The position numbers were made by a program, and so were the translations under genes. Below are positions 6,023 through 53,488 of a stretch of DNA of 64,000 bases, one piece after another. The notes beneath the pieces were generated by a model. The model did no database searches and was not told where the DNA came from. It saw only the letters and a program-made list of their open reading frames with translations. The stretch is from an uncultured Halobacteriales archaeon (GTDB lineage Archaea > Thermoplasmatota > E2 > JACPAO01 > JAHFTW01), in assembly GCA_964627625.1 (NCBI GenBank), contig CAZVJB010000002.1, positions 92,197-156,196 on the forward strand. The letters are read 5' to 3'. Within the stretch, counting starts at the first letter, position 1. The number at the start of each line of letters is the position of its first letter.

Positions 6023-6078
6023 GGGAGGCCTGGGATTGCAGGGATGCCACGGCGATTTTGATGATTCGAGGTTAATCC

Positions 6079-9087: not shown

Positions 9088-9333
9088 ATGAACGAACCAA
9101 ACGTCCAACCGCACCCGGTCCCCGCCTCTGTGCAGGCCGTGCTGAACACTCTCAACCACCACAAACCCATGACGGGCAAGCAGTTGCGGGAAGCCACCGG
9201 CCTCCCCCGCCGCACCATCTACACGGCCCTGCGCCGGCTGCGCGAGATGGGCCTTCTTGAGGAACAAGCCAGCCTGCGCGATACGCGGCAGACCTACTTC
9301 TGGGTCCACGAAGCAAAACCCCAGCCAAACTGA
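9088..9333 (+). CDS. Small winged-helix transcription regulator
   Basis: 81 aa. KPMTGKQLREATGLPRRTIYTALRRLREMGLLEE… is a typical single wHTH (MarR/TrmB-like) protein. Confidence 0.6.
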   Translation: MNEPNVQPHPVPASVQAVLNTLNHHKPMTGKQLREATGLPRRTIYTALRRLREMGLLEEQASLRDTRQTYFWVHEAKPQPN

Positions 9334-9529
9334 AACGGACCCCATGCGGTTTTCTGCGGCCGCGAACTGTCGCCGCCTGGCGCGATGATCTAGCACATCG
9401 TCGGTGAATGATGATCGGATTGGACTTTGGTGAGCGCCGTCCCCTTGCGCATTCTGCGCGCGATTGACACAGCAAAACTACATCCGGAGAGCCGGCTAGG
9501 CAGCCTTCAGGCCTGGCCGTCTACCTGCC

Positions 9530-20950: not shown

Positions 20951-21120
20951 GGGCCAAACGACTCCCGCGCCCCTACTTAAGCCCTTATGGCGGGTTCGGT
21001 AGCGGCCAGGGCGAATTTTATCCCTGTTGCGCGACGGGTCAGAAACGTGCCGGATTCGCCGCAGCGGACTGCGGGGCCAGCGTCGCTGCCGTTAAGCGCC
21101 GCGGCGCCTCGCCGCAGCCT

Positions 21121-32384: not shown

Positions 32385-33464
32385 CTACAACAGCCCTGCC
32401 TTCTGCAGCGTAAGCAAGTCCTCGGTGGAGAGTTTTTCGCCGGCCTTGAACTTCTGGAACACTGCCTCTGCTGCCGCTTCGGAGCGCGCCTGGCTCGCTT
32501 CTGAGCGGCTGGAGCCCGGCGGTGCACCCGACGTGGCCTGCTGGTCTTCGATGTCGTGGATTGCGTTCACGAATTCGATGTACGTCTTGTGAATCTTGTC
32601 GGCTTCCATCTTGGAGATGACGAAGCGCTCTTGCAGTTTGTCTGCGGTCTTGCGCAGTTTGTCCGACTGCTTGTAGAGCTTGATCATGGCGTCGTGCTCG
32701 CCTTGTGCCTTCTCGGCCATCTCGCCGACCTTGGCGTGCGACTTCTCGGCCTTCTCCTTCAGTTCGTCGGCCTTCTCGAGTGCCGCCTTGAGTTCCGGGT
32801 CGGCGCGCAGGCTCTTCTCCTTCTCGCGGATCTGTTTGCCGATCTCCTTGAGGCGCTCCATGAGGGCCTTCTCCTTGGAAACGGTGAGGACGGACGTCAT
32901 CTGCTGGAACTCAAGCTGCTTGGCTTCCTTCTTGAGTTTGGCGACGGTGAGGGTGGCGTCGCCTTCAGGCATGCGTTCGCGGCGCAACGTATCGGCTGCC
33001 TTGCCGGAGTCGTCGGCCGTTCGGTTAGCCTCATCGCGACCTTCTTTGGCGCGCTTCACGCCCTCATTTAATTCATCGCGGCGCTTTTTGTGTTCGTTGG
33101 CCTCGTTGACAAGGCCGCGGACCTGGGCGTTGAAGCCGTCGCGTTCCTCGGCGTGCTTGCGGGCCTCGTCGTTGAGGTGGTCGCGTTCGCGGCGCAGGAG
33201 GTTTGCACGGTTCTGCAAGTCCTCCTTCTTCATGCCCGGTTTGGGGCCGTTCGGGTTTGGCACAACCGGGGCGGCCGGGGTAGCCGGCGCGGGCGTTTCG
33301 GAAGGCTCGGACGTCGCGGGCGCATCGGCTGCGGCGTCTTCGGGGGTCGAGTCGGCCGGCGGCGCCTGCGTGTCGTCAAGCAAGTCGGCGTTCAGGGGGC
33401 TCGGGACGGGCTCGGGGGGCGCACTCTCGTGCGCGACCGAGGCCACTGTAGTGGGCTCGCTCAT
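32385..33464 (-). CDS. Coiled-coil protein with a Pro/Ala/Thr-rich N-terminus, hypothetical
   Basis: About 250 aa of heptad-like, K/E/R-rich sequence (…LRRERDHLNDEARKHAEERDGFNAQVRGLVNEANEHKKRRDELNEG…). Start taken at MSEPTTV. Confidence 0.5.
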   Translation of the reverse strand: MSEPTTVASVAHESAPPEPVPSPLNADLLDDTQAPPADSTPEDAAADAPATSEPSETPAPATPAAPVVPNPNGPKPGMKKEDLQNRANLLRRERDHLNDEARKHAEERDGFNAQVRGLVNEANEHKKRRDELNEGVKRAKEGRDEANRTADDSGKAADTLRRERMPEGDATLTVAKLKKEAKQLEFQQMTSVLTVSKEKALMERLKEIGKQIREKEKSLRADPELKAALEKADELKEKAEKSHAKVGEMAEKAQGEHDAMIKLYKQSDKLRKTADKLQERFVISKMEADKIHKTYIEFVNAIHDIEDQQATSGAPPGSSRSEASQARSEAAAEAVFQKFKAGEKLSTEDLLTLQKAGLL

Positions 33465-33636: not shown

Positions 33637-35883
33637 ATGCTGATGCGCCGGTCGTCGCTCTTCGCGGGATTGGTGGTACTCGTCGCTTGCGCCCTCGCGA
33701 CACCGGCCTGGGGGGCCATCGACTCCGCAACGTACGGCACGAAGGTCATGACCTGGGAGGCCCTTTGCAATCCCGCGGCGCCCGAGGTCGCGCCGGGGAC
33801 CTTGCCGGCGTGCCCCGGCCCGTCCATCACCATCACGCTGCCCACGGACCTCATGGCGACGACGGCCTTCTGGGAAGGCAACGCCGCCTATGTGCTGGGC
33901 GGCGTGAACGAGTGGCACTCACCGACGGTGCCGACCGAGACCGATGCGGTGCTCAAGTTCACGCGCGGCATGCAGGTCGGCGTGTTGCCCGTCTACGAGC
34001 CCAACCAGCCGGGCGGCCTCGTCGTCGGTGCCGGCGCCCTGCCGGCCCCAGCCGCCAACCAGGCATTGGCCTACGACGCCACGGGCAAGGTTGCCTACCT
34101 CTTCGGCTCCAGCAACGAGGGCCGCTTGTCGGATGCGATTTACAGCTACTCGCCCCTCACACAGACGTCGGCGACGATGCCCTGCGTCCTTCCCCGCAAG
34201 TTCGACCTCATGGCCGGCGCGTGGGCGAGCGGCAAGGCGTACCTCTTCGGCGGCCGCTATCTGGAGGGCAACGGCGACACGGTGGCCTTCAGCCTGCACA
34301 ACTCCAACGAAATCTACCGCTTCGACCCCGCGACCTGCGCCTTCAATCTGAACCCGTACCCACTCGCGACCGTCGCGGGCGCGAGCGGGACTGCCGAGGG
34401 CAAGCGCTTCGGGATGACGGCCGTCACCGTTGGCGCGGAAGTCTTCCTCTTCGGCGGCACGTTCATGGACGATGTCGCCGGGACGACGCCCGCCGAGGTC
34501 GGGGGAGGCGCCTACGCGTACAATCCCGTGTGCCCGACTGGGGCGCCGCCCTACGCGCCATGCCCGGTAGCCCAGTGCTCCATCCTGAAGTTTATTCCAG
34601 CCACGGGCGCGACCACCGTCCTGCTCTCCTCCTCCGCGCTCTGCGGCCCCCTCGCTGCCGTGTACGATGGGCAGTTCATCTACGCCTTCACAGGGAGCTC
34701 GGCCTACCGGTACAATCCTGCCACGCCCAGCTCGCCCCCCGTCTACGTCGCCGCGCTGGCCACCGGTGTCGGGCGCGGCGGCCTGTCCGCGACGTCCGCG
34801 GTGAGCACCGGCTGCAGTGCGTACATCTTCGGTGGCCTAATCCGGCCCCCGCCGTTCCTGCCGGACCCCGCCGCCCTCATGGGCGACCCCTACGACCGGG
34901 CGCTCATCTCCGACAAGATCCAGTGGTTCGGCAAGTGCCGCCCGCAAGCCGTCATCGCGCCCACCTACGGCTACACATGCCCCAACTACCCCATCTGGTT
35001 CGACGCCAAGTTATCCACCGTGGGCGAGGGCGACATCATGCAGGCGGCGTGGACGTTCGGCGACGGCACGTCCATCCCGTACTCGTGGTGGTTCGCGCAT
35101 CCCCCTGACTGGTACCCGCAGGCCGCGTTCGTGTCCCACACCTACACGAAGGAAGGCAACTTCCCAGTCACGCTCTCGATTCGCGACGCCAACGGCCTCG
35201 TCTCCACCGCGTCCGTCGTCGTCCCGGTGCGCCAGGACCCCGTGTGCACGACCTTCGGCGGGACACCCCATGTCGCCCGGGCACTGCGATATCCTGAGGG
35301 CGTGGCACTTGACAGCGACCTCGACGGCATCCCCGACGGCGGCGACAACTGCCCCGGCATCGCCAACAACGCGCAGGGCGACCGCGACGGCAACGGCGTC
35401 GGCGACGACTGCGACGAGACTGCGATGCAAGGCGACGGAGGCCCGCCCGCCGCGCCTTCGTCCACTCCTGCTGCGCCTGATCGTGACCGCGACGGCGTGC
35501 CCGACGCCGCGGACAACTGCGCCGCCGTCCCCAACCACGACCAGGCGGACGCCGACATCGACCGCAACGGCGACGTCTGCGACGCCGACATCGATGGCGA
35601 CGGCGTCTCCAACGCCGGCCCGCCGGGCGCGTTCCTCGACAACTGCCCATGGTACGCCAACGTGGATCAGGCGGACCAGGACCTCGATGGCGCCGGCGAC
35701 GAGTGCTCGTTCGGCGCGATGCCAGCCCTCGCTCGGGATGCCGGCGAAGTGCACGCAAGCGCGGCACGCACGTCTGGGTCGCCACCTTGGCTTGCGGCCT
35801 TCACGGTGGCCGCCGTTGCCACGCTCGGCTGCGCGGCGCTGCTTGGCCTCGCGCTGCGCCGACCCGGTGGCCGCCGGCCATAG
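33637..35883 (+). CDS. Type-I membrane surface protein: signal peptide, Kelch-like propeller, PKD domain, thrombospondin type-3 (TSP3) repeats, C-terminal TM anchor
   Basis: Signal MLMRRSSLFAGLVVLVACALATPAWG. Kelch-like blades (AYVLGG…, AYLFGS…, AYLFGGRY…, VFLFGGTF…, YIFGG…). PKD …WTFGDGTS…SHTYTKEGNFPVTLSIRDANG…. TSP3 DxDxDGxxDxxDNC repeats (DSDLDGIPDGGDNCPGIANNAQGDRDGNGVGDDCD; DRDRDGVPDAADNCAAVPNHDQADADIDRNGDVCDADIDGDGV). TM LAAFTVAAVATLGCAALLGLAL followed by RRPGGRRP. Confidence 0.75.
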   Translation: MLMRRSSLFAGLVVLVACALATPAWGAIDSATYGTKVMTWEALCNPAAPEVAPGTLPACPGPSITITLPTDLMATTAFWEGNAAYVLGGVNEWHSPTVPTETDAVLKFTRGMQVGVLPVYEPNQPGGLVVGAGALPAPAANQALAYDATGKVAYLFGSSNEGRLSDAIYSYSPLTQTSATMPCVLPRKFDLMAGAWASGKAYLFGGRYLEGNGDTVAFSLHNSNEIYRFDPATCAFNLNPYPLATVAGASGTAEGKRFGMTAVTVGAEVFLFGGTFMDDVAGTTPAEVGGGAYAYNPVCPTGAPPYAPCPVAQCSILKFIPATGATTVLLSSSALCGPLAAVYDGQFIYAFTGSSAYRYNPATPSSPPVYVAALATGVGRGGLSATSAVSTGCSAYIFGGLIRPPPFLPDPAALMGDPYDRALISDKIQWFGKCRPQAVIAPTYGYTCPNYPIWFDAKLSTVGEGDIMQAAWTFGDGTSIPYSWWFAHPPDWYPQAAFVSHTYTKEGNFPVTLSIRDANGLVSTASVVVPVRQDPVCTTFGGTPHVARALRYPEGVALDSDLDGIPDGGDNCPGIANNAQGDRDGNGVGDDCDETAMQGDGGPPAAPSSTPAAPDRDRDGVPDAADNCAAVPNHDQADADIDRNGDVCDADIDGDGVSNAGPPGAFLDNCPWYANVDQADQDLDGAGDECSFGAMPALARDAGEVHASAARTSGSPPWLAAFTVAAVATLGCAALLGLALRRPGGRRP

Positions 35884-36002
35884 CCGCGTCACGAAATCCG
35901 CCGGCGCCCCGACTTGCACTCAGGAGACGGGCCAGAAACCGTAAATATGCCCGACGGTGCTGTCAGAAGTGGCACAGCGTGCCTCTGGAGTCGCGTCGTC
36001 AC

Positions 36003-38447
36003 ATGTCTTTCCGTATCGTGTCCCTATGTCTTGCCGTCGCCCTGCTTGGGGCCCTCGTGTCGCCGGCGGAGTCCGCGGTAATCCCGGGAATCGACATAAT
36101 CGATTCGTGCACGTATTCCAATTCGGGTTGCCCGACACCGCCACTGCCTATCCTTCCGGCGCCGCCCATCGGGAACGGGTTCCCAATCAACGACGTGTGG
36201 AGCCCGTATTGGAACACCGCCTCGGCTTATGGTCCGCAGCTTGTCACGCATACCGACTTGTGCAATACGGCCCCCGAGCCAATCACCGTCATCGTGGGCC
36301 AGAACCTGGTCACATGCGTCAACGCACAAGGCCCGCCGAGCCCGGGGTGTCCCTGCCCGCCGACACCGGAGCCCATCCCGATTCCGCTACCCTCCCAATT
36401 GTGGTACTCCACGGCCTTCTGGGATGGTAGCGACGGCTACATTCTCGGCGGGGCCATCGACCTTGACGGCTCCGAAACGAGCGCGGTGACGAAGTTCAGT
36501 CGCGGCATGCCGCAGGGCCCGCTCTACGATCCTCCGTACGAGCCCATCCAGCCGGGGGGGGTATTGCAGTCGGCAGGCTCGCTGCCAACTGCGCGCTCGA
36601 ACCAAGGGCTTGCGTACGATACAGCTGGCAACATGGCATACCTGTTTGCCGGCACGAACGGCGGCGAGCTGGACAACAGCATCTACAGCTACACGCCCGT
36701 GACCCAGAGCTCCGGCACGGCGCCGTGCGTCCTGCCCCGCAACTTCGACAAGATGGCGGGCGCGTGGGCGGAGGGCGCCGCCTACGCGTTCGGAGGGCGC
36801 TACCTCGAGGGCAACGGCGACACGGTCGCCTTCAGCCTGCATACCTCCAATGAAATCTACAAGTTCGACCCGTCCACCTGCACGGTCACACTGAATCCGT
36901 TCAATCTCCCCCCGAACGGGGCCGCCAATCCCTACACGCCGGACGGCAAGCGGTTCGGCATGACGGCCGTGACGGTCGGCACCGAGGTCTTCCTGTTTGG
37001 CGGGTTCTTCATGGATGATGTCGCCGGGACCACGCCGACGGAGGTCAACAGCGGTGCCTACGCGTACAACCCGTTGTGCGGCGTTGCCCCACCACAGCCA
37101 CCGTACCTTCCGTGCACGGTGCCACAGTGCTCCATTCTCAAGTTCACGCCGGCCACGGGCATCGTGACGACCATCAATCCGTCGTTTGCGAGCTTGTGCG
37201 GGAACATGTCCGCCGTCTACGACGGCAAGTACATTTTCCTGTTCAAGGGCGGCAGCGCTTACCGGTACGACCCTGCCACGCCAACCATCATGCCCACCTT
37301 TGCAGCCAGTCTGCCGGTCGGCATTGGCCAACCGCTCAAGGCCAACGACTACAGTCGGGGCGGCACCGAAGGGACCTCGGCCATCGCGACGGGATGCAGC
37401 GCCTACATTTTCGGGGGCAAGGTGGATTTCGCCGTTCCTCCTGTCACGACTGCACCCGATGGCCCCATCTCGGACAAGATTACCTGGTTCGGCAAGTGCC
37501 GGCCAACCGCGGTCTTGGCGCCGACCTACGGCTACACCTGCCCGTTCTACCCTATCTGGTTTGACGCCCGCTTCTCGATTGTGGCGGAAGGCGACTTCAA
37601 GAAGGTCACGTGGAACTGGGGCGATGGCACACCGTCGCAGACGGGCTGGTATTTCCCGCACTCCCCTGACTGGTACGACCAGTACGCCTTCCTGCCGCAC
37701 ACCTTCACGAACGAAGGCAATTTCGTGGTCACGATGACAGTGGAGGACTTCAACGGCTTCAAGTCGAGCGCACAGACAACGGTCCCGATTCGAACCGATG
37801 CCGTCTGCACGATGTATGGCGGCACACCGCACACGGGGGCGACGACAATCACGTATCCGGACTCCGAGTCCTTGGACAGCGATCTTGACGGCATCCCCGA
37901 CGTTTCGGACAACTGTGCGGGCGTTGCGAACAACGACCAAGTTGACGAAGACGCCGATGGCGTGGGCGACGAATGCACGACCGCGCCTGTCGACGAGGAA
38001 AAACCGGTGATTCAGCCAGCCCCACCCGAGGTCGTCATGCCCGACAAGGATCGCGACGGCATTCCGGACGTTCGCGATAACTGCAGGGCTTTGCCCAATC
38101 ATGACCAGTCTGACTTGGACACCGATTTGGCTGGCGACGTCTGCGACGTGGACATCGATGGCGATGGCGTTTCGAATTCAGGCCCGCCCGGCGCGTTCTT
38201 GGACAATTGTCCGTGGTACGCCAACCCGGACCAGTTGGACTCGAACGGCGACGGCGCCGGCGACGAATGCGCCTTCATGGAGGGCGCGTTTGCCAAGCCG
38301 AAGGCGGCTGGCCCGGCGGCGGCAGGCGATGTCGCGAAGCCGTCTTCGCTGCCGTGGGCCGCCGCAACCGGGATGGCCATCGCGGCCGCGCTCGGCACAG
38401 TCTTCCTACTCATGGTCCTGCTACGCCGGACCCGGCGCCCCGAGTAG
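36003..38447 (+). CDS. Paralogous type-I membrane Kelch/PKD/TSP3 surface protein (tandem duplicate of 33637-35883)
   Basis: Same architecture and many identical motifs (AYLFAGTNGGELDNSIYSYTPVTQSSGTAPCVLPRNFDKMAGAWA…, PKD WNWGDGTPS…, TSP3 DSDLDGIPDVSDNCAGVANNDQVDEDADGVGDEC, DKDRDGIPDVRDNCRALPNHDQSDLDTDLAGDVCDVDIDGDGV). TM MAIAAALGTVFLLMVLL followed by RRTRRPE. ATG at 36003. Confidence 0.75.
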   Translation: MSFRIVSLCLAVALLGALVSPAESAVIPGIDIIDSCTYSNSGCPTPPLPILPAPPIGNGFPINDVWSPYWNTASAYGPQLVTHTDLCNTAPEPITVIVGQNLVTCVNAQGPPSPGCPCPPTPEPIPIPLPSQLWYSTAFWDGSDGYILGGAIDLDGSETSAVTKFSRGMPQGPLYDPPYEPIQPGGVLQSAGSLPTARSNQGLAYDTAGNMAYLFAGTNGGELDNSIYSYTPVTQSSGTAPCVLPRNFDKMAGAWAEGAAYAFGGRYLEGNGDTVAFSLHTSNEIYKFDPSTCTVTLNPFNLPPNGAANPYTPDGKRFGMTAVTVGTEVFLFGGFFMDDVAGTTPTEVNSGAYAYNPLCGVAPPQPPYLPCTVPQCSILKFTPATGIVTTINPSFASLCGNMSAVYDGKYIFLFKGGSAYRYDPATPTIMPTFAASLPVGIGQPLKANDYSRGGTEGTSAIATGCSAYIFGGKVDFAVPPVTTAPDGPISDKITWFGKCRPTAVLAPTYGYTCPFYPIWFDARFSIVAEGDFKKVTWNWGDGTPSQTGWYFPHSPDWYDQYAFLPHTFTNEGNFVVTMTVEDFNGFKSSAQTTVPIRTDAVCTMYGGTPHTGATTITYPDSESLDSDLDGIPDVSDNCAGVANNDQVDEDADGVGDECTTAPVDEEKPVIQPAPPEVVMPDKDRDGIPDVRDNCRALPNHDQSDLDTDLAGDVCDVDIDGDGVSNSGPPGAFLDNCPWYANPDQLDSNGDGAGDECAFMEGAFAKPKAAGPAAAGDVAKPSSLPWAAATGMAIAAALGTVFLLMVLLRRTRRPE

Positions 38448-38572
38448 CGGCGTCAGCCATGCGCAAGCCTGCCGCAAGGACAGCCGGCGCTGCCACCGGC
38501 GCAAGCCTTAGTTTTTGGCCACGGATGTCCGTTTCTTGGGGGCAGGCCCGGTCAAGGCGTCCCATAAAGGCT

Positions 38573-39883
38573 ATGTTGCTTGCCGATGCTCCAAGAGCGG
38601 GTATGTTGGGTCACGCAGTTCGCGCCGCCGGGCAGGATGCCGCTCCGCCGCCGCAGGCAATTCCGCGTTCGACGGTCGGGGGGCAGACGACCTTCGCCGG
38701 CCGATACCTGATTCTCGTTGCAGCGGCCATCGCGCTTTGCCTGCTCATTTTCCTCCCAAATACGGCAGACGCACAATGTGCTCCTGGTCCGCCTCCGAAC
38801 GACTGTTTTGCCAGCGCCAAGACCGGTTCGGGCGAGTATTCGAATACCCAAAGCACCATCGGTGCCACGAACGAGGTCAGCGAACAGGTACCCATGACTG
38901 CGGCCGACGCAGTGGGCGCCACGATTTGGTACAGTTGGACTGCCCCGTACGCCGGCACGGCAAGCGTGAGCCTGTGCGGCTCCGACTACAACTCGGTGCT
39001 TGCAGTCTGGACGGGTTCGGCCATCGGGTCATTGTTCCTGGTGACCTACAACGACGATGGGTGCGGCGGCATCGGTGTTCCAAGCCAGCTGAGTTTCACC
39101 TGCGCGGCCAACACCGTCTACCGGATTCAGGTCGCCGGTTGGTCGCAATCGGTTGGCAATGCGAGACTCACAATCACGGGTTGCACGACCCCGCCTCCCT
39201 CGCGGACTGATTCCGACCAGGATGGCGTCGAAAACGATGCCGACAACTGTCCTGCCATCAACAACAACCAGGACGACCTCGACCGTGACGGCGAGGGCGA
39301 CCCCTGCGACGCCGACCGCGATGGTGACGAGATTGCCAATGGGGTCGACAATTGCCCGGATCTTGCCAACCCAAATCAGACGGACGAGGATGAGAACGGC
39401 ATAGGAGATGTCTGCGAGGGCGCGGATGGCAGCGGCACGGTGGAGACACCACCGTCGCAGGAAGTTGACTCGGATCTCGACAGCGTCCCCGACAATGCGG
39501 ACAACTGTCCAGCCGCAGCCAATCGCTATCAAGACGACCTCGATGACGATAACATCGGCGACTTGTGCGATTCTGACCTGGACGGCGACGGGGTGTCCAA
39601 CGAGGCCATTGCCGACGATGGCATTGTCGCCACGTTCACGGACAACTGCCCGCAAGTACCCAATCCGGACCAGTTGGACAGCGACGGCGACGGCAAGGGT
39701 GATGCGTGTCAATTCCTGGCTGGCTGGACCCCGCAGAAAGGCGGCTTGCCGGCGCCCGGAAGTTCGGCCGAGCGTGCAGAGTCGAAAACGATGTGGTTCA
39801 TGGCCGCAATCACGGTGGGCGGCGCCGTTCTCGTGGCCGCCCTAGTCGGCCTTGTCGTCGCGATGATACGCCGCAAATCGTAG
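38573..39883 (+). CDS. Type-I membrane protein with a Cys-containing N-terminal beta domain and four or more TSP3 repeats
   Basis: TM/signal YLILVAAAIALCLLIFL. Domain CAPGPPPNDC…YNDDGCGG…SQLSFTCAANTVYRIQVAGW. TSP3 repeats DSDQDGVENDADNCPAINNNQDDLDRDGEGDPCDADRDGDEIANGVDNCPDLANPNQTDEDENGIGDVC…DSDLDSVPDNADNCP…. C-terminal TM MWFMAAITVGGAVLVAALVGLVVAM followed by IRRKS. The start is 38573 or 38603. Confidence 0.7.
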   Translation: MLLADAPRAGMLGHAVRAAGQDAAPPPQAIPRSTVGGQTTFAGRYLILVAAAIALCLLIFLPNTADAQCAPGPPPNDCFASAKTGSGEYSNTQSTIGATNEVSEQVPMTAADAVGATIWYSWTAPYAGTASVSLCGSDYNSVLAVWTGSAIGSLFLVTYNDDGCGGIGVPSQLSFTCAANTVYRIQVAGWSQSVGNARLTITGCTTPPPSRTDSDQDGVENDADNCPAINNNQDDLDRDGEGDPCDADRDGDEIANGVDNCPDLANPNQTDEDENGIGDVCEGADGSGTVETPPSQEVDSDLDSVPDNADNCPAAANRYQDDLDDDNIGDLCDSDLDGDGVSNEAIADDGIVATFTDNCPQVPNPDQLDSDGDGKGDACQFLAGWTPQKGGLPAPGSSAERAESKTMWFMAAITVGGAVLVAALVGLVVAMIRRKS

Positions 39884-40034
39884 GGCTGCGCCATTGGCGC
39901 GCCGGCGCTAGGATTGTGGCGCGCAGCACGCGCGCAGAAGCGCGCCGCGCCGGCGCCCGCGGCCCGACCCGCGCGCGTCCCGGCCATTTGGGGGCCTTCC
40001 GTTCGACCCGCTTCTTGGACATAAATGTTAAGCC

Positions 40035-43000
40035 TTGAACAGGGTCGTGCCGCCTATGCGCTGGCTGGTTCTAGCCGCTTTATTGATGGTTGCGTTGCCG
40101 GTTTCAGCTGTCGCTCCGTTGTCGCTTGACCTGGGCCAATTCACCCCCCCTGGCGCGGCGCCGGCCGCGGACAACAAGCACGATGATTCGGCAACCGACC
40201 CGTGGGCCTGGCTTCCTCGCGCTCATGCGGATGCGCATTTCGAAGCGGTCCTCGGCAATTCACCCGGCATCCTGGGCCTCGACGCCCTTGCCACCGAAAC
40301 AGAGGGTTCACCCACTACCTCGCCCCCCGTCATCCCAACCGGTGACTACCCGGTGGGTTGGGTCACCGCGTTCCTCGGCAGCCCGCGCATCCTGCGCATG
40401 GCGGACCTCGACGGCGACGGAGGGCGCGACGTTGTCGCCGGCACGGACCTTGGTGTGGTCGCCGTTGATGGAAATACCGCGCAAGTTCGTTGGTTCCGGC
40501 CGATTGGCAACGGCGTGCGCGGCCTCGAGATTGGTCAGTACGACGGCGGCAAAGGCCAGGACGTCGCGTACGCGACAGGCTGGGGCGCACGGGACCCCTT
40601 GGCTGCGGTTGTCTCGGGCGTCACGGGCAGCGTCCTTTGGCAAGTGGACCTGCCTTCTCCGGCGTTGACAATCGCCTTGGTCCCAGGCGACAAACCGGAC
40701 ATGCTGGTCGCAACGATGGCCGGAACGCACGTTCGGCTTGCCGGCGCTGACGGCGCGACCGTCTGGTCGACCGACTCGAACCTGCTCCCTAGCACTGGCG
40801 CCGTCGTTGCCGGTTACTTCAACCTCGGCCACTACCTTGCATCCGCCGGCGACGTCAACGGCGACGGCACACCAGATCTGGTGAGCGCGGCCCTCGTCTA
40901 CTACTACGCCTCCGCCCCGCTGGCCGTCTGGTCCTTCAATGAGTTCACCATGCTGAGCGCCGTTGACGGTGCCACGGGCAACATGCTTTGGCACCACCCG
41001 ATTGGCGCCGAGCCGACCGCGGACTTCTCCTTCACCGTCCTCTCGGACTTGGACGCCCTCGACACGAAGGGCGACGGCTCGCTGGATATCGCGTACACGG
41101 GTGCCACCATGCGATTCGACGCGGCGATTGTGTCCTACCGTCCATTCCTGCGTGTCGTCGATGGCGCAAGTGCAGTCGTCGGGACCCTCCTTGGAACGCG
41201 CGAGACCGCCTCTTCCCAGGTCCGCCTGGAATTGTTCGTCGCGCTCGACCATACCGATGTCAACGGGGATGGCCGCGACGAAGCCGTGGTGCTGCGTGAG
41301 TCCATCGTGCAATCGCTGACGGTCGGAGGCAGCCTGTTCTTGGAGCGCTTCGCCTTTGCCTCGGACCCCACCACGGCCGGCCTCATGCTCGTCCTTTCCG
41401 ACATTTCGTTGCCCTTTTCGTACGGCGCGTGGCTTGCACCAACAAGTGCTGCGCCCGGGGCCCGCGACGTAGCAGTCCTGATGCCTTGGGCCGATGGCTC
41501 CGTGGAGCGCATCGACGCAGCCGGAAAATCCGTTGGCGTGCGTGAGTTTGCGTCGCAAGGCGCCATGTCTATCCTCGACATGGAAGGCGTGACGGTCGTC
41601 GGTACGGAGGCGGGTCTTGAGTTCAGCGACCACACCTTCGCCAAGATCGGCGCGCAGACCCTCTTCTTCGGCCGCCCCTTGCAAATTGAGGTTGTCCCCG
41701 CGTCGGGTGCCCCCGTCATCGCGGTGCGCTCCTCGGACCACGCAATTCACGTGCTCGACCCCGTAACCGGACAACGCATGCTCCGGACCGTCGTCCCGGG
41801 CCTGAATTCCCTGCATGCGGATACGCACGCCGACACGGGTCTGCTGTTCGTCGGCTCCTACGTTCAGGGTGACTTTGACTCAAGTCGCCTGATGGAGGCT
41901 TGGCACATGCCTGAGGCCACCGTTGTGTGGTCGCAAAAGTACGGCGGCTACAGTTATGGCGTCCCCGGGGGCGTCCATTGGTTCGATGGCAATGGTGATG
42001 GCATCGACGACGCCTTGGTCCAAGCGGGCTATGCAGGAAGCGGCAAGTACTCCATCAAGGCCGTAAGCGGGTCAGACGGCTCGACTCTGTTCGACGCTGC
42101 CCTACCCGCGGGCGCATTCTCATACTACTTCTATCAGGCGGCCACGGTTCGCTTCGGCGGCCACGCGGGCGACGATTTCGTTCTTGCGGACTGGCGGTAC
42201 ACCTGGGCCTTCGAGGGCTCCACCGGGAAAAACCTGTGGAAACTTGAACTCGATTACGAACCCGACTGCATGACGGCGGCGGACTTCGACGCCGACGGCG
42301 CAGAGGCGCTGCATTACATGCGGTACGATTGGCGCTCGCGCGATGTGGTCATCGGCCAAGTTGGCTTGGATGGCAAGGCGCAAGAAACCGCGCTGCCAGG
42401 CGACGACAATTTCTGGATCAATTGCTGGTACGCTCAAGGCCCAAGCAAAACGGTGCTGGTCGCCTTCGCAAGTTATTATGGCGGCGGCAAATCGCTGGCG
42501 GGAGCCATCGCCTTCGACGCCTCTGGAATCCGCTGGAGCACGCTTGTGGACGTCCGCGAGGAGGACGCCACGGCCTTCACGCCCTTGGCCGTCGATGCGA
42601 CTGCGTACGGTGGCGGTCGCGTGTACGGCGGTTTCGGCGCTGCGCTGCGCGTTGCGAACTTGGACGACGGCGCGACGGTGACCGACGTGTCGCTAGACGT
42701 TCGGCCAAGCAGCATCAAGGTTCTCGACTTGGATCACGTCGGAGACCTGGACTTCATCCTGTCTACGCCCGATGGGCTTCTTCGCGGCATGGGCGCCGAC
42801 CTCAAACTGGTCGTTCCAGGTGAGGGACCGGGCGACGGGACCGATCCGGGGGCCCGCATCGATGACGGCGTTCTGCCGGGCGATGCAGTCGAGGGGGGCG
42901 AGCCCGGCGACGGTGGCGCGGCACGGCCGATTGAGGCGGACGGGGACGGCGGCAAGACCAGCCCCGACCTGCCCACGACAATCGTCGTGGCGGCCCTGTT

Positions 43001-43037
43001 GGGCCTTGTCATACGCAAGCGTCGCCGCAGCGCCTAG
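40035..43037 (+). CDS. 1000-aa type-I membrane protein with integrin-alpha-like FG-GAP/VCBS beta-propeller repeats
   Basis: Signal MRWLVLAALLMVALPVSA. Recurrent Ca-binding-like DxDGDGxxD loops (DLDGDGGRDVV, DVNGDGTPDLV, TKGDGSLDIAY, DVNGDGRDEAV, DGNGDGIDDAL, DFDADGAEAL). A Gly/Asp/Pro-rich stalk, then TM TTIVVAALLGLVI followed by RKRRRSA. Confidence 0.75.
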   Translation: MNRVVPPMRWLVLAALLMVALPVSAVAPLSLDLGQFTPPGAAPAADNKHDDSATDPWAWLPRAHADAHFEAVLGNSPGILGLDALATETEGSPTTSPPVIPTGDYPVGWVTAFLGSPRILRMADLDGDGGRDVVAGTDLGVVAVDGNTAQVRWFRPIGNGVRGLEIGQYDGGKGQDVAYATGWGARDPLAAVVSGVTGSVLWQVDLPSPALTIALVPGDKPDMLVATMAGTHVRLAGADGATVWSTDSNLLPSTGAVVAGYFNLGHYLASAGDVNGDGTPDLVSAALVYYYASAPLAVWSFNEFTMLSAVDGATGNMLWHHPIGAEPTADFSFTVLSDLDALDTKGDGSLDIAYTGATMRFDAAIVSYRPFLRVVDGASAVVGTLLGTRETASSQVRLELFVALDHTDVNGDGRDEAVVLRESIVQSLTVGGSLFLERFAFASDPTTAGLMLVLSDISLPFSYGAWLAPTSAAPGARDVAVLMPWADGSVERIDAAGKSVGVREFASQGAMSILDMEGVTVVGTEAGLEFSDHTFAKIGAQTLFFGRPLQIEVVPASGAPVIAVRSSDHAIHVLDPVTGQRMLRTVVPGLNSLHADTHADTGLLFVGSYVQGDFDSSRLMEAWHMPEATVVWSQKYGGYSYGVPGGVHWFDGNGDGIDDALVQAGYAGSGKYSIKAVSGSDGSTLFDAALPAGAFSYYFYQAATVRFGGHAGDDFVLADWRYTWAFEGSTGKNLWKLELDYEPDCMTAADFDADGAEALHYMRYDWRSRDVVIGQVGLDGKAQETALPGDDNFWINCWYAQGPSKTVLVAFASYYGGGKSLAGAIAFDASGIRWSTLVDVREEDATAFTPLAVDATAYGGGRVYGGFGAALRVANLDDGATVTDVSLDVRPSSIKVLDLDHVGDLDFILSTPDGLLRGMGADLKLVVPGEGPGDGTDPGARIDDGVLPGDAVEGGEPGDGGAARPIEADGDGGKTSPDLPTTIVVAALLGLVIRKRRRSA

Positions 43038-43345: not shown

Positions 43346-43849
43346 ATGCTGGACGACCAAACCGTCCGCGGCCTTTTGCAGGCCTACCACGATTCCACGC
43401 AGGGCGAGGATGGGGTTCCTACACCGCTCATGATTCTCCACGGCCTGCGGGAGGAGGTCACGATCCGCCCGCACATCGAATTACCGTCGGCGTACCACAT
43501 GGCCCACTACCTCGACGAATTCGTGACGGAACGCACGATAGGCATCACCGTGTGTGGTCGCTTCTTCAAACAGATTGGCGAGAAGGTCTTCCAGGGCACG
43601 CTCCTGTACCACGTCGACCGCATCGGCAGCCACCTGATTCGCGGCATCAACGCGCAGACCGGCCTCTACACCGTCCTCGACGATTCGCCGTACTGGAACA
43701 AGTTCCCCTACGACTTTGACCAGGGACCGCAAGACCCAGACTTGCCCATCGGCTACCACCCGGGGCCAGAACTTGAAGAGGGCGAAGGTGCAGCCGATGA
43801 TGACAAGACAGCAAACGCGGCCGCCGGCGACGACGACAGCGAACCCTGA
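43346..43849 (+). CDS. Hypothetical protein with an acidic C-terminal tail
   Basis: MLDDQTVRGLLQAYHDS…ITVCGRFFKQIGEKVFQGTLLYHVDRIGSHLIRGINAQTGLY… has globular-like composition. It lies immediately upstream of the ABC-F gene. No family was recognised. Confidence 0.4.
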   Translation: MLDDQTVRGLLQAYHDSTQGEDGVPTPLMILHGLREEVTIRPHIELPSAYHMAHYLDEFVTERTIGITVCGRFFKQIGEKVFQGTLLYHVDRIGSHLIRGINAQTGLYTVLDDSPYWNKFPYDFDQGPQDPDLPIGYHPGPELEEGEGAADDDKTANAAAGDDDSEP

Positions 43850-43906: not shown

Positions 43907-45712
43907 ATGAGCCAGCCACTCGTGAAGGCCGACGACCTGCACGTTAGCTTCGGCCCGACGCACGTGCTTCGCGGCGCGGGCTTCATCATCCATCCGGGCG
44001 ACAAGATTGCGCTTGTCGGGCCCAACGGCGCAGGCAAGACGACACTTTTCAAGATACTCTCGGGTCAGATTCGGCCTGATCTTGGCGAACTTGCGATGGA
44101 TCCGGACCTGCGCATCGCCTACATGCCGCAAGTCCCGGATATTCCGGCGGCCACTCCGGTGCAGGACCTGCTTGCGGCGCCGTCTGCCAACGCGCGTCGC
44201 ATCGAGCAGGAGATTGGCGGCCTCGAAGCGTGGATGGCAGACCCCGCCTCGTTCGAAGGGCCCGACGTCAACGAGAAGATGGCGCGGTACTCGGAGTTGC
44301 AGTCCCGTCTGCAGGAGGAGCGCAGCAAGGGCCGCGCCACGGATTCGCCGCTACTCAACGACCTCGGCCTGCCGGAGGAGACGCTGGAGGCGAATTTCGG
44401 CAGCCTGTCCGGCGGCGAACGCAGCAAAGTGCTTCTGGCCAAGGCGCTCGCTGCGGCCAAGGAAACCGACTTATTGCTGCTTGACGAACCGACGAACCAC
44501 ATGGACATCCCGACGGTGGAGTTCATCGAGCAGTACCTCATGGACTTGAAGGGCTCCGTCATCGTTTCCGCGCATGACAAGTACCTTCTGGACAACGTGG
44601 CCGACCGGGTCTTCGAGGTTGACCACCGCAAAGTCGCGTCGTACACGGGAAATTACTCCAGCTACCAGGCACAACGGCGGGCTCTGCAAGCCGCGATTGC
44701 CGCGCGCAAGGCCCGCAACGAGAACGAGGTCAAACGGCAACTCAAGATCATCGAGGAACTGAAGGTGCGTAACAAGTTCGACGCCCAGGTGCGCAGCCGC
44801 AAAACACGCATGAAGCACCTCGAGCAACCGCGCGAGGAGGCGCCAACGACGCGCAAGGCCTTCCGCATGCTCTTTGACACCGACACGCCGCCGCGCGAAT
44901 CCATTCAGATTGACGACGTTTCCAAGACCTTTGGCGAGCGCGTGCTGTTCTCGCATGTGACATTAGAGGTTGAGGGTGGCGACAAGATTGGCCTCATCGG
45001 TCCGAACGGCTGTGGCAAGTCGACTCTCATCAAGCTCATCACTGGCAAGATGCAGCCGAACGGTGGCACCATCAAGCGCGCGCCCGCCGTAAGCATCGGC
45101 TACTTCGACCAACATCACGAGGGCCTGCACCCCGAACGCACCCTGCTTGAGGAGGCGCAGAGCCTGCGTGACCCGCCTCCTCCCGACGAATGGAGCCGCG
45201 GCCTGTTGGGTCGTTTCCACTTCAGCGGCGACGAGGTCTACAAGAAAGTCAAGGAACTCTCGGGCGGTGAACGTGCGCGCCTCGCCTTGGCGAAATTCAT
45301 CGTCGGACGGCACAACACCCTCATCCTGGACGAGCCGACAAACCACCTCGACATCGAATCGCAGGAGATTGTTGCGGCGGCCCTGCGCGAATACGAGGGC
45401 ACCGTCATTGTCGTCTCGCACAATCGCAGTTTCCTCGATGAGGTCTCCAACAAAATCGCCATCATTGCGCATCGGCGTGTCGGGCTCTTCCCAGGGAATT
45501 TCAGTTCGGCGTGGGCCTCGAAGCGCATGTCCGAGTTTGCCGCCACCGGCGCCAAGGGGCGCTACAAGGTCCTGCGCGCGTTCAAGGATTGGGAAAGGGA
45601 CGCGAAGTTCCACTCGGGCGACATGATTACGATTACCGGCCTTGAGACCCAGGGTTTCCGACGCCTTCTGCGTTGGGCCGAGTCTGAAGGACGCATCGAA
45701 GAGATGACGTGA
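43907..45712 (+). CDS. ABC-F family ATPase (two tandem ABC cassettes, no TMD)
   Basis: Two Walker A motifs (GPNGAGKTT; GPNGCGKST), two ABC signatures (LSGGERSKV; LSGGERARL), two Walker B motifs (LLLLDEPTNHMD; TLILDEPTNHLD), and a charged linker between the cassettes. Confidence 0.85.
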   Translation: MSQPLVKADDLHVSFGPTHVLRGAGFIIHPGDKIALVGPNGAGKTTLFKILSGQIRPDLGELAMDPDLRIAYMPQVPDIPAATPVQDLLAAPSANARRIEQEIGGLEAWMADPASFEGPDVNEKMARYSELQSRLQEERSKGRATDSPLLNDLGLPEETLEANFGSLSGGERSKVLLAKALAAAKETDLLLLDEPTNHMDIPTVEFIEQYLMDLKGSVIVSAHDKYLLDNVADRVFEVDHRKVASYTGNYSSYQAQRRALQAAIAARKARNENEVKRQLKIIEELKVRNKFDAQVRSRKTRMKHLEQPREEAPTTRKAFRMLFDTDTPPRESIQIDDVSKTFGERVLFSHVTLEVEGGDKIGLIGPNGCGKSTLIKLITGKMQPNGGTIKRAPAVSIGYFDQHHEGLHPERTLLEEAQSLRDPPPPDEWSRGLLGRFHFSGDEVYKKVKELSGGERARLALAKFIVGRHNTLILDEPTNHLDIESQEIVAAALREYEGTVIVVSHNRSFLDEVSNKIAIIAHRRVGLFPGNFSSAWASKRMSEFAATGAKGRYKVLRAFKDWERDAKFHSGDMITITGLETQGFRRLLRWAESEGRIEEMT

Positions 45713-50894: not shown

Positions 50895-51097
50895 TTCCAG
50901 ACAGATGTGCTGGAGTGAATGTATTACCCAATGACTATTAGAACTCGAATCTGGTGTTTTGAGTGCCGGCGGGTCCGGGGTGGTCGCATCGGGGAATTGC
51001 ATGCATCGTGCCAGAGAGGCCGATGCTGGGCAGGGCGTTCCATGGCTACACCATCAACGGGCGCGCTAAGGGCGGTTTCCGGAGACTCCTGTTGACC

Positions 51098-53488
51098 ATG
51101 CGTCTGGGGATGGGAATCGCGATTGCCGGGCTCCTTGGAACCCTTCTAATCCCAATCGGCGAGGCAGCAATCTCATCGGATGCCCGCGTATCAACCGACG
51201 GCTACCTCCCAAGCGGGCGTCATGGGGCGGGCGCGGTGTGGGATTCCGTGCGGCATGTCGTCTACATATTCGGCGGCTTCGACGAGAAGCTCCAAACGGA
51301 CACTGCCGAAATCCTGGAGTTTGACCCGGCATCCTCGGCACGCAACGCGACACTAATCGGCCATCTTCCAGGACCCATGTCGGGCCTTGTCGCCGTCTGG
51401 ACGGGCGAGGTTGCGTACATCGTCGGAGGCGACTCGGATGCAATCATGCAATTCGATCCCGCCACCGCCACGCTCACGGTCCTATCGGTCCGCTTACCCC
51501 ATACCGTGGACTCCCCCGCCGCGGTCTGGACGGGCCGAGCGATGTATCTTTTCGGCGGCACCTCCGATTCCTCCACGCCCGTCGGCACCATCATGCGCTT
51601 CGAGCCCGACGAGATGACTGCCAGCACCCTTGAGGAGACTCTACCTCGCGCTGGGCACTACGCAGCCGTCTGGTCCGGCGATGGCACCGCATACATCCTC
51701 GGCGGAGGCGGAAACGAGATTTACGCATTTACTCCCAACCACGCGCCCTCCCTGGTTCAGCTGAATGTCACCTTGCCGCTGGCCATCGATGCAGCCGGCG
51801 CCGTTTGGGACGGTACAGCCGTGCTCGTCTTCGGTGGTCGGGAGGCTGACGGCAGCCCCAATGGAGGGACGGCTCTCGACACAGTAATACGGTTTGATCC
51901 ACAAGCGCCTCCGTCACAGAGTGTGTCGTATTGGCCGAACCTGCCCGTTCCTGGCACCGAACTTCGAGGCGTCCCCCGCCCCTGCGACAGCGCGTTTCTT
52001 TTGGGTGGCAAATGGCAGACCGCCTCTCTCTATGACGCCATATCGAGGTACGGCCCGCCGCAGTCGACTCCCGGGGATTGCCTCGGGCCCAAGAAATCAG
52101 ACCCGCAATCAGACCCGCAATCCGCGTCCGCAAAGGTATTGCAAGCGGATTTCACGTGGCATTCCAAACCGGTCAAGTGCGGTCCTCGCTCCGTATCGTT
52201 TACTGACACATCAACCCCCGGCGATGCCCCAATCGTCTCATGGGGGTGGGACTTTGGTGACGGCTCGCAATCCGCCGAACAAAACCCCCAACACACCTAC
52301 GCCAATTCGGGAACCTACACCGTCCGCGAAACCGTCACGGATTCCGCGGGAAGCACATCGACGTACGAGACGACGGTCTACGCGCCTGCAAACAAGGAAT
52401 GCATTGAGAAAACTTCACCCTCGTCGACGCAGCATGGGGCGCGGCCGCCGCGCGATGGCAACGGCGAAGCTTCGGGAGACGCCGATGGGGACGGTATCTC
52501 AGATTCGGATGATGATTGCCCCTTCACTGCCGACCCCGAACAGTTAGACGCTGATGGCGATGGCATCGGAGACGTATGCGACGACGACGCGGACAACGAC
52601 GGCATCCGCAACGTGGTCGACAATTGTCCAGTGGTTCCCAACCGGGCCCAAACCGATTTTGATGCCGACGGCTTGGGGGATGTCTGCGACCCCGACGCTG
52701 ATGGCGATACCGTCGCTAATGAAGTGGATAATTGCCTCCAGATGGCCAACGCGGACCAACTGGACAGCGATGCGAACGGTATCGGCGATTCCTGTGATTT
52801 CAAGCAGTCCAACCTATCAAACGAAGCAAGCCAACCTCGCCCAATTTCGAGGGCACGGGGGGTAGCGTCTGTCGGTCGCGAAACGTCCGCGAACGGAGCC
52901 ATTCCCCTGGCAATCGGCATCGCCATCCTCTTGGCCATTATCGTTGCCGCCACCTGTTGGCGAATCGCGCAAGCCAACGCCAGGGGGCCAACAGTCTCCA
53001 AGACGAAGACGCCTCCCGTGGTGTTGCTCTTTAGCCGCATTGGCGACGCCGACCTTCTCAAGCACCCAATTCGCAAACACCTCGTCCAAATCATCCATGA
53101 AAAGCCAGGCATCACGTTCATCGAACTGGTTGCGGCCTCGGGCAAGGGCCGCGGCACAATCGAGCACCACTTGGCGACCCTACAGGCCGGCAGAATCATT
53201 CAAGCTGAACGATCCGGTCGATTCCTGTGTTACTATGCGCGGCCATTGAAGCCGCACGACGCCGAGCGAACCGTGGCGCTACGGTCGGCGTTGGCGCAAG
53301 CCGTGGCTCGTCTGGCCATCCGGCGTCCTGGGACGACGATGTACGAAGCATCCCGCCAACTCGGCGCGGACTACACGGCCATCAAGTACCACGCACGGCG
53401 CCTGGCCGCGGCGGGAATCATCTCGGTAACGCCCGACAATCGCCTGCACGGCGGAGCATGGCACATTCACAACGACACCCGAACGTAG
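51098..53488 (+). CDS. Membrane-spanning fusion: extracellular Kelch propeller, PKD and TSP3 repeats; one TM helix; cytoplasmic tandem winged-helix DNA-binding domains
   Basis: Signal MRLGMGIAIAGLLGTLLIPIGEAA. Kelch-like blades (VYIFGGFD…, AYIVGGDSD…, MYLFGGTSD…, AYILGGGGN…, VLVFGGREADG…). PKD WGWDFGDGSQS…HTYANSGTYTVRETVTD. TSP3 DADGDGISDSDDDCPFTADPEQLDADGDGIGDVCDDDADNDGIRNVVDNCPVVPNRAQTDFDADGLGDVCDPDADGDTVANEVDNC…. TM IPLAIGIAILLAIIVAATCW. Then …HPIRKHLVQIIHEKPGITFIELVAASGKGRGTIEHHLATLQAGRII… and …TMYEASRQLGADYTAIKYHARRLAAAGIISV…, the two wHTH units shared with 59444-59998. The start may be the upstream MLGRAF at 51023. Confidence 0.75.
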   Translation: MRLGMGIAIAGLLGTLLIPIGEAAISSDARVSTDGYLPSGRHGAGAVWDSVRHVVYIFGGFDEKLQTDTAEILEFDPASSARNATLIGHLPGPMSGLVAVWTGEVAYIVGGDSDAIMQFDPATATLTVLSVRLPHTVDSPAAVWTGRAMYLFGGTSDSSTPVGTIMRFEPDEMTASTLEETLPRAGHYAAVWSGDGTAYILGGGGNEIYAFTPNHAPSLVQLNVTLPLAIDAAGAVWDGTAVLVFGGREADGSPNGGTALDTVIRFDPQAPPSQSVSYWPNLPVPGTELRGVPRPCDSAFLLGGKWQTASLYDAISRYGPPQSTPGDCLGPKKSDPQSDPQSASAKVLQADFTWHSKPVKCGPRSVSFTDTSTPGDAPIVSWGWDFGDGSQSAEQNPQHTYANSGTYTVRETVTDSAGSTSTYETTVYAPANKECIEKTSPSSTQHGARPPRDGNGEASGDADGDGISDSDDDCPFTADPEQLDADGDGIGDVCDDDADNDGIRNVVDNCPVVPNRAQTDFDADGLGDVCDPDADGDTVANEVDNCLQMANADQLDSDANGIGDSCDFKQSNLSNEASQPRPISRARGVASVGRETSANGAIPLAIGIAILLAIIVAATCWRIAQANARGPTVSKTKTPPVVLLFSRIGDADLLKHPIRKHLVQIIHEKPGITFIELVAASGKGRGTIEHHLATLQAGRIIQAERSGRFLCYYARPLKPHDAERTVALRSALAQAVARLAIRRPGTTMYEASRQLGADYTAIKYHARRLAAAGIISVTPDNRLHGGAWHIHNDTRT

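Follow-up and report, generated by a model that had tools for sequence, protein, structure and literature searches.

A probable cell-surface protein with two predicted calcium-loop beta-propellers in an uncultured Thermoplasmatota archaeon

The stretch of DNA analysed here, 64 kb of contig CAZVJB010000002.1 from an uncultured Thermoplasmatota archaeon (hereafter the window), carries at 40056..43037 on the plus (+) strand a gene for a putative surface protein; gene and product are both referred to as the target. The frame is open without interruption from 40035 to 43037 (+). An initial annotation of the locus read it as a protein of 1000 amino acids (aa) beginning at TTG 40035 (+): the frame is real, but this TTG marks an in-frame extension upstream of the likely start. 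We take ATG 40056 as that start, rather than the TTG, because the signal peptide opens there and because public gene calls agree (P0001, a 993-aa product identical to the target, whose coding sequence spans 40056..43037, stop included); residues are numbered from this ATG throughout. G+C content at the three codon positions (0.68/0.50/0.76) is typical for coding frames of the window. The gene is separated from its neighbours by 172 bp upstream and 308 bp downstream, and is probably transcribed from its own promoter. A possible archaeal TATA-like box (CATAAATG, 40020..40027, +), read from the sequence ∼30 nt 5′ of ATG 40056, would mean a short or absent leader and would likewise suggest a promoter of its own; a scan for sigma-70 promoters and terminators was uninformative, the host being an archaeon.

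Relatives of the target are few. A word-indexed search of 5.8 billion proteins returned only two, and its repetition with a 10-sequence profile added distant propeller proteins only. When 1.84 billion cluster representatives were searched exhaustively with HMMER, ten full-length members of 945–1048 aa were recovered with E-values up to 1e-124, among them seven further orthologs that had lain beyond the word-indexed search. The boundary of the family is marked by a jump in E-value from 1e-124 to 1e-35, where long multi-domain propeller proteins start to match blade by blade. The ten orthologs align end to end (alignment A2) and share 27–39% identity with the target. (Matched proteins are labelled P0001–P0178 and compared loci L002–L013.) Invariant across the alignment are residues of five loops described below (the four that fit a strict calcium-loop pattern, and the loop at aa 336), together with D893, C738, C790, P970 and R991; R989 is nearly so.

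Three members of the family carry source names, all of them metagenome-assembled genomes of Thermoplasmata or Thermoplasmatota, with the annotations ‘PQQ-like domain’ (Thermoplasmata archaeon) and ‘PQQ-binding-like beta-propeller repeat protein’ ((Candidatus) Thermoplasmatota archaeon). The P0002 ortholog is flanked by archaeal genes (Pus10, the archaeosine TGT arcTGT, RpoF and L21e). Outside the family the nearest relatives (P0011–P0018 and P0151–P0178; E 1e-35 to 1e-20) are FG-GAP/PQQ propeller proteins; the few named organisms among them are all bacterial, many of the proteins are fused to Ser/Thr kinases together with PEGA, and one to cohesin/dockerin. A scan of genome contigs for the target family gave two propeller loci from planctomycetes, L004 and L005, which are unrelated and were of no taxonomic help. 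Each examined contig that bears an ortholog has a single copy, as does the window, which holds no paralog of the target. Judged by these sequence comparisons, the target is a member of a small, lineage-specific and new family of a well-known kind, assembled from prokaryotic repeat types.

An AlphaFold (AF2) model built on the ten-sequence alignment reached a mean predicted local distance difference test score (pLDDT) of 73.1 and a predicted template-modelling score of 0.78; a version built on three sequences reached a pLDDT of only 40.6. In the model the protein is all-beta from aa 100 to 912, followed by a disordered stalk (aa 917–970) and a terminal helix (aa 974–992). The 63 strands fall into two sets. 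The first 32 form a predicted N-terminal beta-propeller of ∼8 four-stranded blades (aa 100–536; 40353..41663, +), and the remaining 31 a predicted C-terminal propeller, also of ∼8 blades (aa 541–912; 41676..42791, +). Rather than the single seven-bladed propeller that an AlphaFold model had been expected to reveal, the prediction thus contains ∼16 blades in two tandem domains, the count of about eight plus eight being drawn from the strand number and from structural matches. Comparison of the N half with the C half of the family alignment by hhalign gave a probability of 97.6% (E 3.6e-12) and several further alignments whose registers are shifted (template starts 5, 58, 103 and 157); at the level of sequence profiles the two halves are homologous.

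Foldseek places the model closest to multi-propeller proteins (E ∼1e-16). Structural matches include designed eight-fold propellers, Fbw7 and Cdc4, Rsa4 and Sqt1, BamB and YxaL, and NirF and NirN; sequence identity is highest for BamB (17–19%) and YxaL (15%), and no integrin appears within the first 60 structural matches. A sequence search of the PDB returned only a weak, repeat-level match to a PQQ-like protein (E 8.5e-05).

Two types of repeat motif meet in the blades. Loops of the form Dx[DN]GDG sit between the first and second strand of blades in the model, and a PQQ-like turn, ‘DGxTGxxxW’, lies between the last two. The only full Pfam family to pass its cut-off in the target is PQQ_2 (PF13360, BamB type; 35.0 bits, cut-off 27.6). 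The FAM234A/B propeller model (PF23727) also scores above its threshold (29.5 bits, cut-off 26.4), with only profile positions 244–333 of 467 matched: a match of repeat level, not of domain level. The best Pfam FG-GAP stretch of the target, aa 262–279, lies over the loop DVNGDGTPD. Two orthologs, P0004 and P0009, pass PQQ_2 (53.2 and 43.4 bits), FG-GAP_3 (46.5 and 41.4) and FG-GAP (30.1 and 34.1), from which it appears that the FG-GAP_3/VCBS repeat type is real at the level of the family and eroded in the target copy. Because these orthologs pass all three models, the blades can be described, at the level of prediction, as hybrids of an FG-GAP/VCBS calcium loop with a PQQ-like (BamB-type) turn. 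This places the family, on sequence grounds, in the VCBS-integrin-PQQ supercluster of propellers defined by Pereira and Lupas (PMC8023676).

The initial annotation counted six or more DxDGDGxxD loops: a relaxed pattern does find seven, but only four conform to the strict pattern (at aa 117, 266, 401 and 644), the other three being degenerate (DTKGDGSLD at 336, DFDADGAEA at 743 and DLDHVGDLD at 891). In 2000 shuffles of the sequence the mean number expected by chance was 0.00 for the strict and 0.23 for the loose pattern. The first loop, DLDGDGGRD (aa 117–125; 40404..40430, +), joins the first strand of blade 1 to the second, and its D117, D121 and G122 are invariant in the ten orthologs. It is followed by DVNGDGTPD (aa 266–274; 40851..40877, +; D266, G269, D270, G271 and D274 invariant); by the degenerate DTKGDGSLD (aa 336–344; 41061..41087, +), between strands 324–335 and 344–355, with D336, G339 and D340 invariant; by DVNGDGRDE (aa 401–409; 41256..41282, +), with D401 invariant and D405 and E409 nearly so; and by DGNGDGIDD (aa 644–652; 41985..42011, +), with D644, D648 and D652 invariant. 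The last two are less well preserved: G746 is nearly invariant in DFDADGAEA (aa 743–751; 42282..42308, +), as are D891 and L892 in DLDHVGDLD (aa 891–899; 42726..42752, +), where D893 is invariant. The ectodomain is acidic (122 D+E residues against 55 K+R), and the repeats might have been explained as generic acidic low-complexity sequence; this explanation is ruled out by the position of the loops inside four-stranded blades and by Asp and Gly columns that remain invariant across ten orthologs at ∼30% identity.

The hydrophobic N-terminus of the target (MRWLVLAALLMVALPVSAVAP; hydrophobic window aa 1–26) contains a predicted Sec-type signal peptide, MRWLVLAALLMVALPVSAVA, which would be cleaved after aa 20 (40056..40115, +); a hydrophobic N-terminal segment is present in most orthologs. 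Between it and the first propeller lies a variable region (aa 21–99; 40116..40352, +) that is partly helical in the model and little conserved in A2, with pLDDT values of 23–46 at aa 21–50 and 81–100 and of 68–79 over the helices at aa 51–80. Several orthologs have NxT-rich and His-rich (GTHSHHH) stretches here, which the target does not. The only two cysteines of the target (0.2% of its residues), C738 and C790, stand at strand starts (738–742 and 785–794) of neighbouring blades in the segment 42267..42425 (+); their invariance in A2 and their placement in the model make a disulfide possible. After the second propeller comes the Gly/Asp/Pro-rich stalk (aa 917–969; 42804..42962, +), noted earlier and confirmed here by its composition (28% G, 15% D, 11% P) and by its predicted disorder (pLDDT <50). 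It is longer in the target than in seven of the nine other orthologs, which are gapped over most of this stretch in A2.

The protein ends in a tripartite tail (42963..43034, +), apparent in A2 and in a comparison of tails: the invariant P970, in ‘SPDLP’, is followed by 15 hydrophobic residues, LPTTIVVAALLGLVI, and then, as had been described, by RKRRRSA. The C-terminus can accordingly be written SPDLP-TTIVVAALLGLVI-RKRRRSA, with …IVVAALLGLVIRKRRRSA as the terminal peptide. All ten orthologs share the design: an invariant Pro, then a hydrophobic run of 12–17 residues, then an Arg cluster no more than 12 residues from the C-terminus. No PGF or PEF sorting tripeptide had been seen at this end, and PGF is indeed absent from the target, but the Pro at the orthologous position is invariant and opens a PGL or PGF in four of the ten orthologs. 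The three-part arrangement is that of C-terminal sorting signals (PMC11980579). With the substrates of archaeosortase A that carry PGF-CTERM the target family has in common the Pro-containing signature, the short hydrophobic run, the terminal Arg cluster and a preceding flexible stalk; it differs in that the target reads SPDLP instead of PGF and in that the corresponding model stays below its cut-off. The tails of the target, its neighbours and nine orthologs were searched with sorting-domain models from NCBIfam: PGF-CTERM (TIGR04126, cut-off 24.5) has no match in the target and scores 13.9 bits in the best ortholog, and the tails of orthologs give scattered MYXO-, Loki- and PEP-CTERM and LPXTG matches that run through the hydrophobic and RRR part only. 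The tail of the target resembles a PGF-CTERM-type signal, and processing by a sortase-type enzyme is a reasoned possibility, not a finding.

Together the above analyses suggest that the target is an exported, C-terminally tethered cell-surface protein with two Ca2+-binding propellers, specific to its lineage within the Thermoplasmata/Thermoplasmatota, an interpretation that we hold to be on balance probable. In outline it agrees with the initial annotation, which had proposed an exported, C-terminally anchored propeller protein with FG-GAP/VCBS-type loops beside TSP3 proteins: signal peptide, tail, loops and model all point this way. A Sec signal peptide would direct export, and the ectodomain would fold into two tandem, mutually homologous propellers of ∼8 hybrid blades each. 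The DxDxDG motif has an established role in calcium binding, and by analogy the five to seven loops conserved in the family may bind Ca2+ and stiffen the propellers. The disordered acidic Gly/Asp/Pro stalk would keep them away from the membrane, to which the tail would tether the protein either as a direct anchor or, more likely because the hydrophobic run is only 12–17 residues, as a PGF-CTERM-like signal; in the latter case an archaeosortase-type enzyme would cut the signal and put a lipid in its place. Because its cytoplasmic tail has seven residues, the target could not signal by itself. BamB-type propellers act as scaffolds, and by analogy with these and with FG-GAP propellers the target most likely offers a platform at the cell surface for binding or scaffolding. 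Its possible partners include ligands, particles, neighbouring cells and the surface peptidases that are encoded alongside it in related genomes.

Several observations weigh against this interpretation. The fold derives from a single AlphaFold model made from ten sequences. The target itself stays below the cut-offs of Pfam FG-GAP (18.1 bits, cut-off 22.1) and of FG-GAP_3 (PF13517, VCBS type; 24.7 bits, cut-off 26.9), so that the check with FG-GAP and VCBS models that had been proposed for it succeeds in P0004 and P0009 but not in the target. None of the curated sorting-domain models reaches its cut-off on the target tail (PVV-CTERM 12.5 bits, cut-off 27; PEF-CTERM 12.3, cut-off 23), the one ortholog tail that touches a cut-off does so on generic grounds (MYXO-CTERM 20.6, cut-off 20), and no archaeosortase- or exosortase-like gene was recognised among the scanned open reading frames (ORFs) of the window. 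As to peptidases as partners, the window has no homolog of the S15 peptidase found beside several orthologs, and that adjacency may only mirror conserved gene order.

Comparison with known propellers shows which features are shared and which are peculiar to the family. The target resembles BamB and YxaL (PF13360) in the eight-blade geometry, in the ‘DGxTGxxxW’ turn, in its extracytoplasmic location and in having no enzymatic role, but has two tandem propellers rather than one and Dx[DN]GDG calcium loops in several blades, loops that PQQ-type propellers normally do not have (PMC8023676). It is, moreover, archaeal and anchored at the C-terminus, whereas BamB has an N-terminal lipid anchor. We know of no BAM complex in archaea. 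With FG-GAP/PQQ hybrid ectodomains, bacterial where named, the target shares a mixture of FG-GAP_3, FG-GAP, PQQ_2 and FAM234 signals in Pfam; those proteins, in contrast, are 1100–1900 aa long and carry signalling or cellulosome-type modules, and their matches to the target cover only stretches of 100–200 residues; the target, for its part, has a cytoplasmic tail of no more than seven residues. EMC1 also combines a signal peptide, two PQQ-like propellers and one C-terminal transmembrane helix. However, identity to EMC1 is ∼9–10%, its structural score is no better than those of SF3B130, DDB1 and Utp21, EMC1_C (PF07774) has no match in the target at E<=0.1, and neither the acidic stalk nor the fast evolution of the target suits an insertase subunit.

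The surroundings of the gene were compared across eight distinct ortholog contexts. In the window, in L006 and in L007 the target is followed by the 167-aa protein and then by ABC-F (at L006 ABC-F is assumed for a 617-aa neighbour), with MMPL also present in the window and L007. A second arrangement is common to L010/L011, L012 and L013, with DUF7121 (opposite strand) before the target and an S15 peptidase after it; beyond these, L010/L011 and L012 have a small ORF and ABC-F, and the contig of L013 ends earlier. In the window the DUF7121 gene (32388..33233, −) stands directly before three TSP3 genes, and because of this the gene-order comparison indicates that the target holds a conserved slot of which the TSP3/Kelch/PKD genes are the variable occupants. 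TSP3 genes adjoin the target in only two of the eight contexts, the window and L007, and their adjacency is therefore not a trait of the family.

Position is conserved, and sequence much less so. The target has 35% identity to its L007 ortholog (P0010), as compared with 91% for the 167-aa protein, 84% for FtsZ, 82% for DUF7121, 79% for ABC-F and 77% for MMPL. By this comparison few genes of the region evolve as fast as the target, which is what one would expect of a protein exposed on the surface; either diversifying pressure or weak constraint on such a protein could account for its divergence. Very little is known of the cell envelopes of uncultured Thermoplasmatota. Given its conserved position, single copy and rapid divergence, the target could reasonably be considered as a virus receptor, an adhesin or an exposed component of the envelope in this lineage, and its tail is suggestive of C-terminal sorting by a system outside current models.

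The neighbouring genes invite a more specific interpretation, in which the target serves extracellular S15 and S8 peptidases as a substrate-capture or scaffold partner in a protein-degrading lifestyle. S15 peptidases of X-Pro dipeptidyl-peptidase/CocE type accompany the target in four contexts and, because they have lipoprotein signal peptides (LAGC, LSGC or MAGC), can be taken as surface enzymes. They lie directly downstream of the ortholog in L010/L011 (L010 8380..12236), L012 (9035..10759) and L013 (6601..8409), and one gene upstream in L007 (5589..7439); in L006 an S8 peptidase is directly upstream. That BamB-type propellers serve as scaffolds also speaks for such a partnership. Against it stands the conservation of the neighbourhood as a whole: since TtuA, DUF7121, ABC-F and FtsZ are retained too, the S15 adjacency may be no more than inherited gene order. 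The window, as noted, has no S15 homolog, and no peptidase is found near the ortholog at L002 or L003. We regard the partnership as unlikely. Near the ortholog at L013 there is also a second FG-GAP/PQQ propeller protein, of 499 aa (432..1931).

It is also conceivable, and to our minds quite unlikely, that the target is the main envelope protein of its host: a surface-layer (S-layer) type protein built from propellers, cut by an archaeosortase at a Pro-Gly-Leu/Phe-like signature and anchored by a lipid. The haloarchaeal S-layer glycoprotein, which is archaeosortase-cleaved and lipid-anchored, consists of immunoglobulin (Ig)-like domains. A number of features would suit this proposal, among them the single copy per contig in a conserved slot across deeply diverged relatives, the size of ∼1000 aa with signal peptide, stalk and short hydrophobic tail ending in RRR, the invariant Pro with PG[LF] in four of ten orthologs, the NxT-rich N-terminal regions of orthologs, and a fast divergence such as S-layer proteins show. 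A further point in its favour comes from elsewhere in the window, where a Big_1 Ig-like surface protein of 1875 aa (15464..21091, −) has a Ser/Thr/Pro-rich stalk and a tail, SPSPGVPLVALVGALIALVAVRRRNGA, of the same type as that of the target family; there is a weak match (E 0.011) between this tail and the C-terminus of haloarchaeal S-layer glycoproteins that depend on ArtA. The proposal is opposed by the PGF-CTERM scores given above, by the failure to recognise an archaeosortase among the ORFs scanned, by the absence of any N-glycosylation sequon from the target protein and by a promoter that is not evidently strong, the TATA-like box being its only, putative, element. To our knowledge, moreover, propellers are not known to form lattices in archaea. 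Still bolder, and very unlikely in our estimation, is the idea that the target is the principal envelope protein of one uncultured groundwater/soil lineage of Thermoplasmatota and that it shares with the Big_1 protein an uncatalogued PGF-CTERM-like signal (an invariant Pro, often within PG[LF], 12–17 hydrophobic residues, RRR). Were the target an envelope protein of this kind, it would provide the first archaeal surface layer made of tandem beta-propellers.

The initial annotation went in another direction and saw in the target a receptor resembling integrin alpha, in which one seven-bladed FG-GAP propeller is joined to a stalk and a type-I anchor, set in a cluster of eukaryote-like receptors. 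In an integrin-type propeller, as characterised by Chouhan et al. (2011, PMC3192720), the FG-GAP/Cage consensus (phi-phi-G-phi X13-20 P X2-15 G) recurs in all seven consecutive repeats, and metazoan-type alpha subunits have in addition a KxGFFxR tail (PMC3192720). The target shares with integrin alpha and with bacterial integrin-type propellers the DxDxDG loop that links a blade's first two strands, of the type present in integrin blades 4–7, and membership of the VCBS/integrin/PQQ supercluster (PMC8023676); with integrin alpha it also has in common a single C-terminal hydrophobic segment with a basic tail, fit for a single-pass anchor, and the FG-GAP and FG-GAP_3 matches, weak in the target, are significant in orthologs. 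However, its 63 strands make up ∼16 blades in two domains, not seven blades in one; regular-expression searches found three FG and one GAP but no Cage motif and no GFFKR (no G[FY]FxR); the second propeller gives way to the disordered stalk, leaving no sequence for thigh or calf domains; and a cytoplasmic tail of only 7 aa follows the hydrophobic segment. The nearest relatives are likewise FG-GAP/PQQ propellers, bacterial where named and often fused to Ser/Thr kinases. An integrin identity is largely refuted and we consider it highly improbable: what is shared amounts to the calcium loop and one hydrophobic segment at the C-terminus. Nor is the ‘eukaryote-flavoured’ character ascribed to the cluster supported, given the relatives of the target, bacterial where named, and the match of the neighbours’ TSP3 to bacterial MtsC-type models. 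For eukaryote-like receptors in archaea the outcome is thus negative, the building blocks being ordinary prokaryotic FG-GAP/PQQ repeats with no specific link to integrins.

A pyrroloquinoline-quinone (PQQ)-dependent dehydrogenase or other propeller enzyme, a reading encouraged by the ‘PQQ-binding-like’ annotation of homologs and by the weak PDB match, can be rejected as barely credible, since PF01011 stays below its cut-off (13.7 bits, cut-off 26.7, over a single 25-residue stretch), matches are confined to the repeat turn motif, and divergence is extreme (28–39% identity among orthologs, ill-suited to a conserved active site); the target has no cytochrome or cofactor domains, and BamB and YxaL, the best-matching PQQ-like structures, are not known to be enzymes.

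Returning to the target as a tethered surface protein, its immediate neighbours add to the picture of the locus. Together with three upstream genes it forms a surface-gene cluster, earlier put at about 10 kb, that comprises four consecutive + strand genes (33637..43037, 9.4 kb), whose products all have a signal peptide and, at the C-terminus, a hydrophobic segment with a basic tail. The three upstream genes (33637..39883, +) encode TSP3 proteins, two with Kelch, PKD and TSP3 domains and one with TSP3 only; their counterparts in L007 lie at 3466..9973. The suggestion that all four proteins share one mode of anchoring did not hold up. The hydrophobic run is 15 residues in the target as against 23–26 in the three TSP3 proteins of the window, two of which open it with ‘PW’, and is similarly long in two PKD/TSP3 proteins of L007. 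In four of the five TSP3 proteins of the window and L007 taken together ‘PW’ opens the run (the third window protein has ‘MW’), with RR afterwards. By sequence the tail type of the TSP3 proteins is distinct from that of the target, and because of the difference in run length the four adjacent genes of the window have no common tail type.

Downstream, a 167-aa cytoplasmic protein (MLDDQTVRGLL…; 43346..43849, +) is encoded just upstream of ABC-F in the window, L006 and L007. It matched no Pfam or NCBIfam family. Its 91% identity to the L007 homolog (over 144 aligned aa; 83–84% to the L006 and L007 homologs in a multiple alignment) makes it more conserved than FtsZ or ABC-F in the L007 comparison. 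The gene was considered as an operon partner of the target and rejected, because its product is highly conserved and cytoplasmic and because it travels with ABC-F; it is kept only in the window, L006 and L007, and the corresponding genes of L002 and L003 are unrelated. The ABC-F ATPase itself (43907..45712, +) matches NF000355 with 446.9 bits (cut-off 380), and its syntenic position is kept in at least three related lineages that have an ABC_tran call there (L007, L010 and L012). Among archaea, ABC-F proteins have been described only from Methanomassiliicoccales-type Thermoplasmata (Murina et al., PMC6723617); together with the source names of family members and the archaeal neighbours of P0002, the gene served to place the family taxonomically.

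A last gene of the window recalls the TSP3 proteins in a different setting. The 841-aa protein encoded at 50963..53488 (+) has an N-terminal hydrophobic segment (aa 42–58), a Kelch propeller (75–330), a PKD domain (409–469) and TSP3 repeats (501–577), followed by a transmembrane segment (641–671), an HVO_0163-type winged helix (698–761) and an ArsR/MarR-like helix-turn-helix (HTH; 787–827). From its domain order it looks like a single-pass, membrane-tethered transcription factor with an ectodomain that resembles the TSP3 surface proteins, and it may be more unusual than the target. The pair of domains in its cytoplasmic part recurs in a 269-aa protein at 2882..3691 (−), which combines an HVO_0163-type HTH with an ArsR-like HTH.

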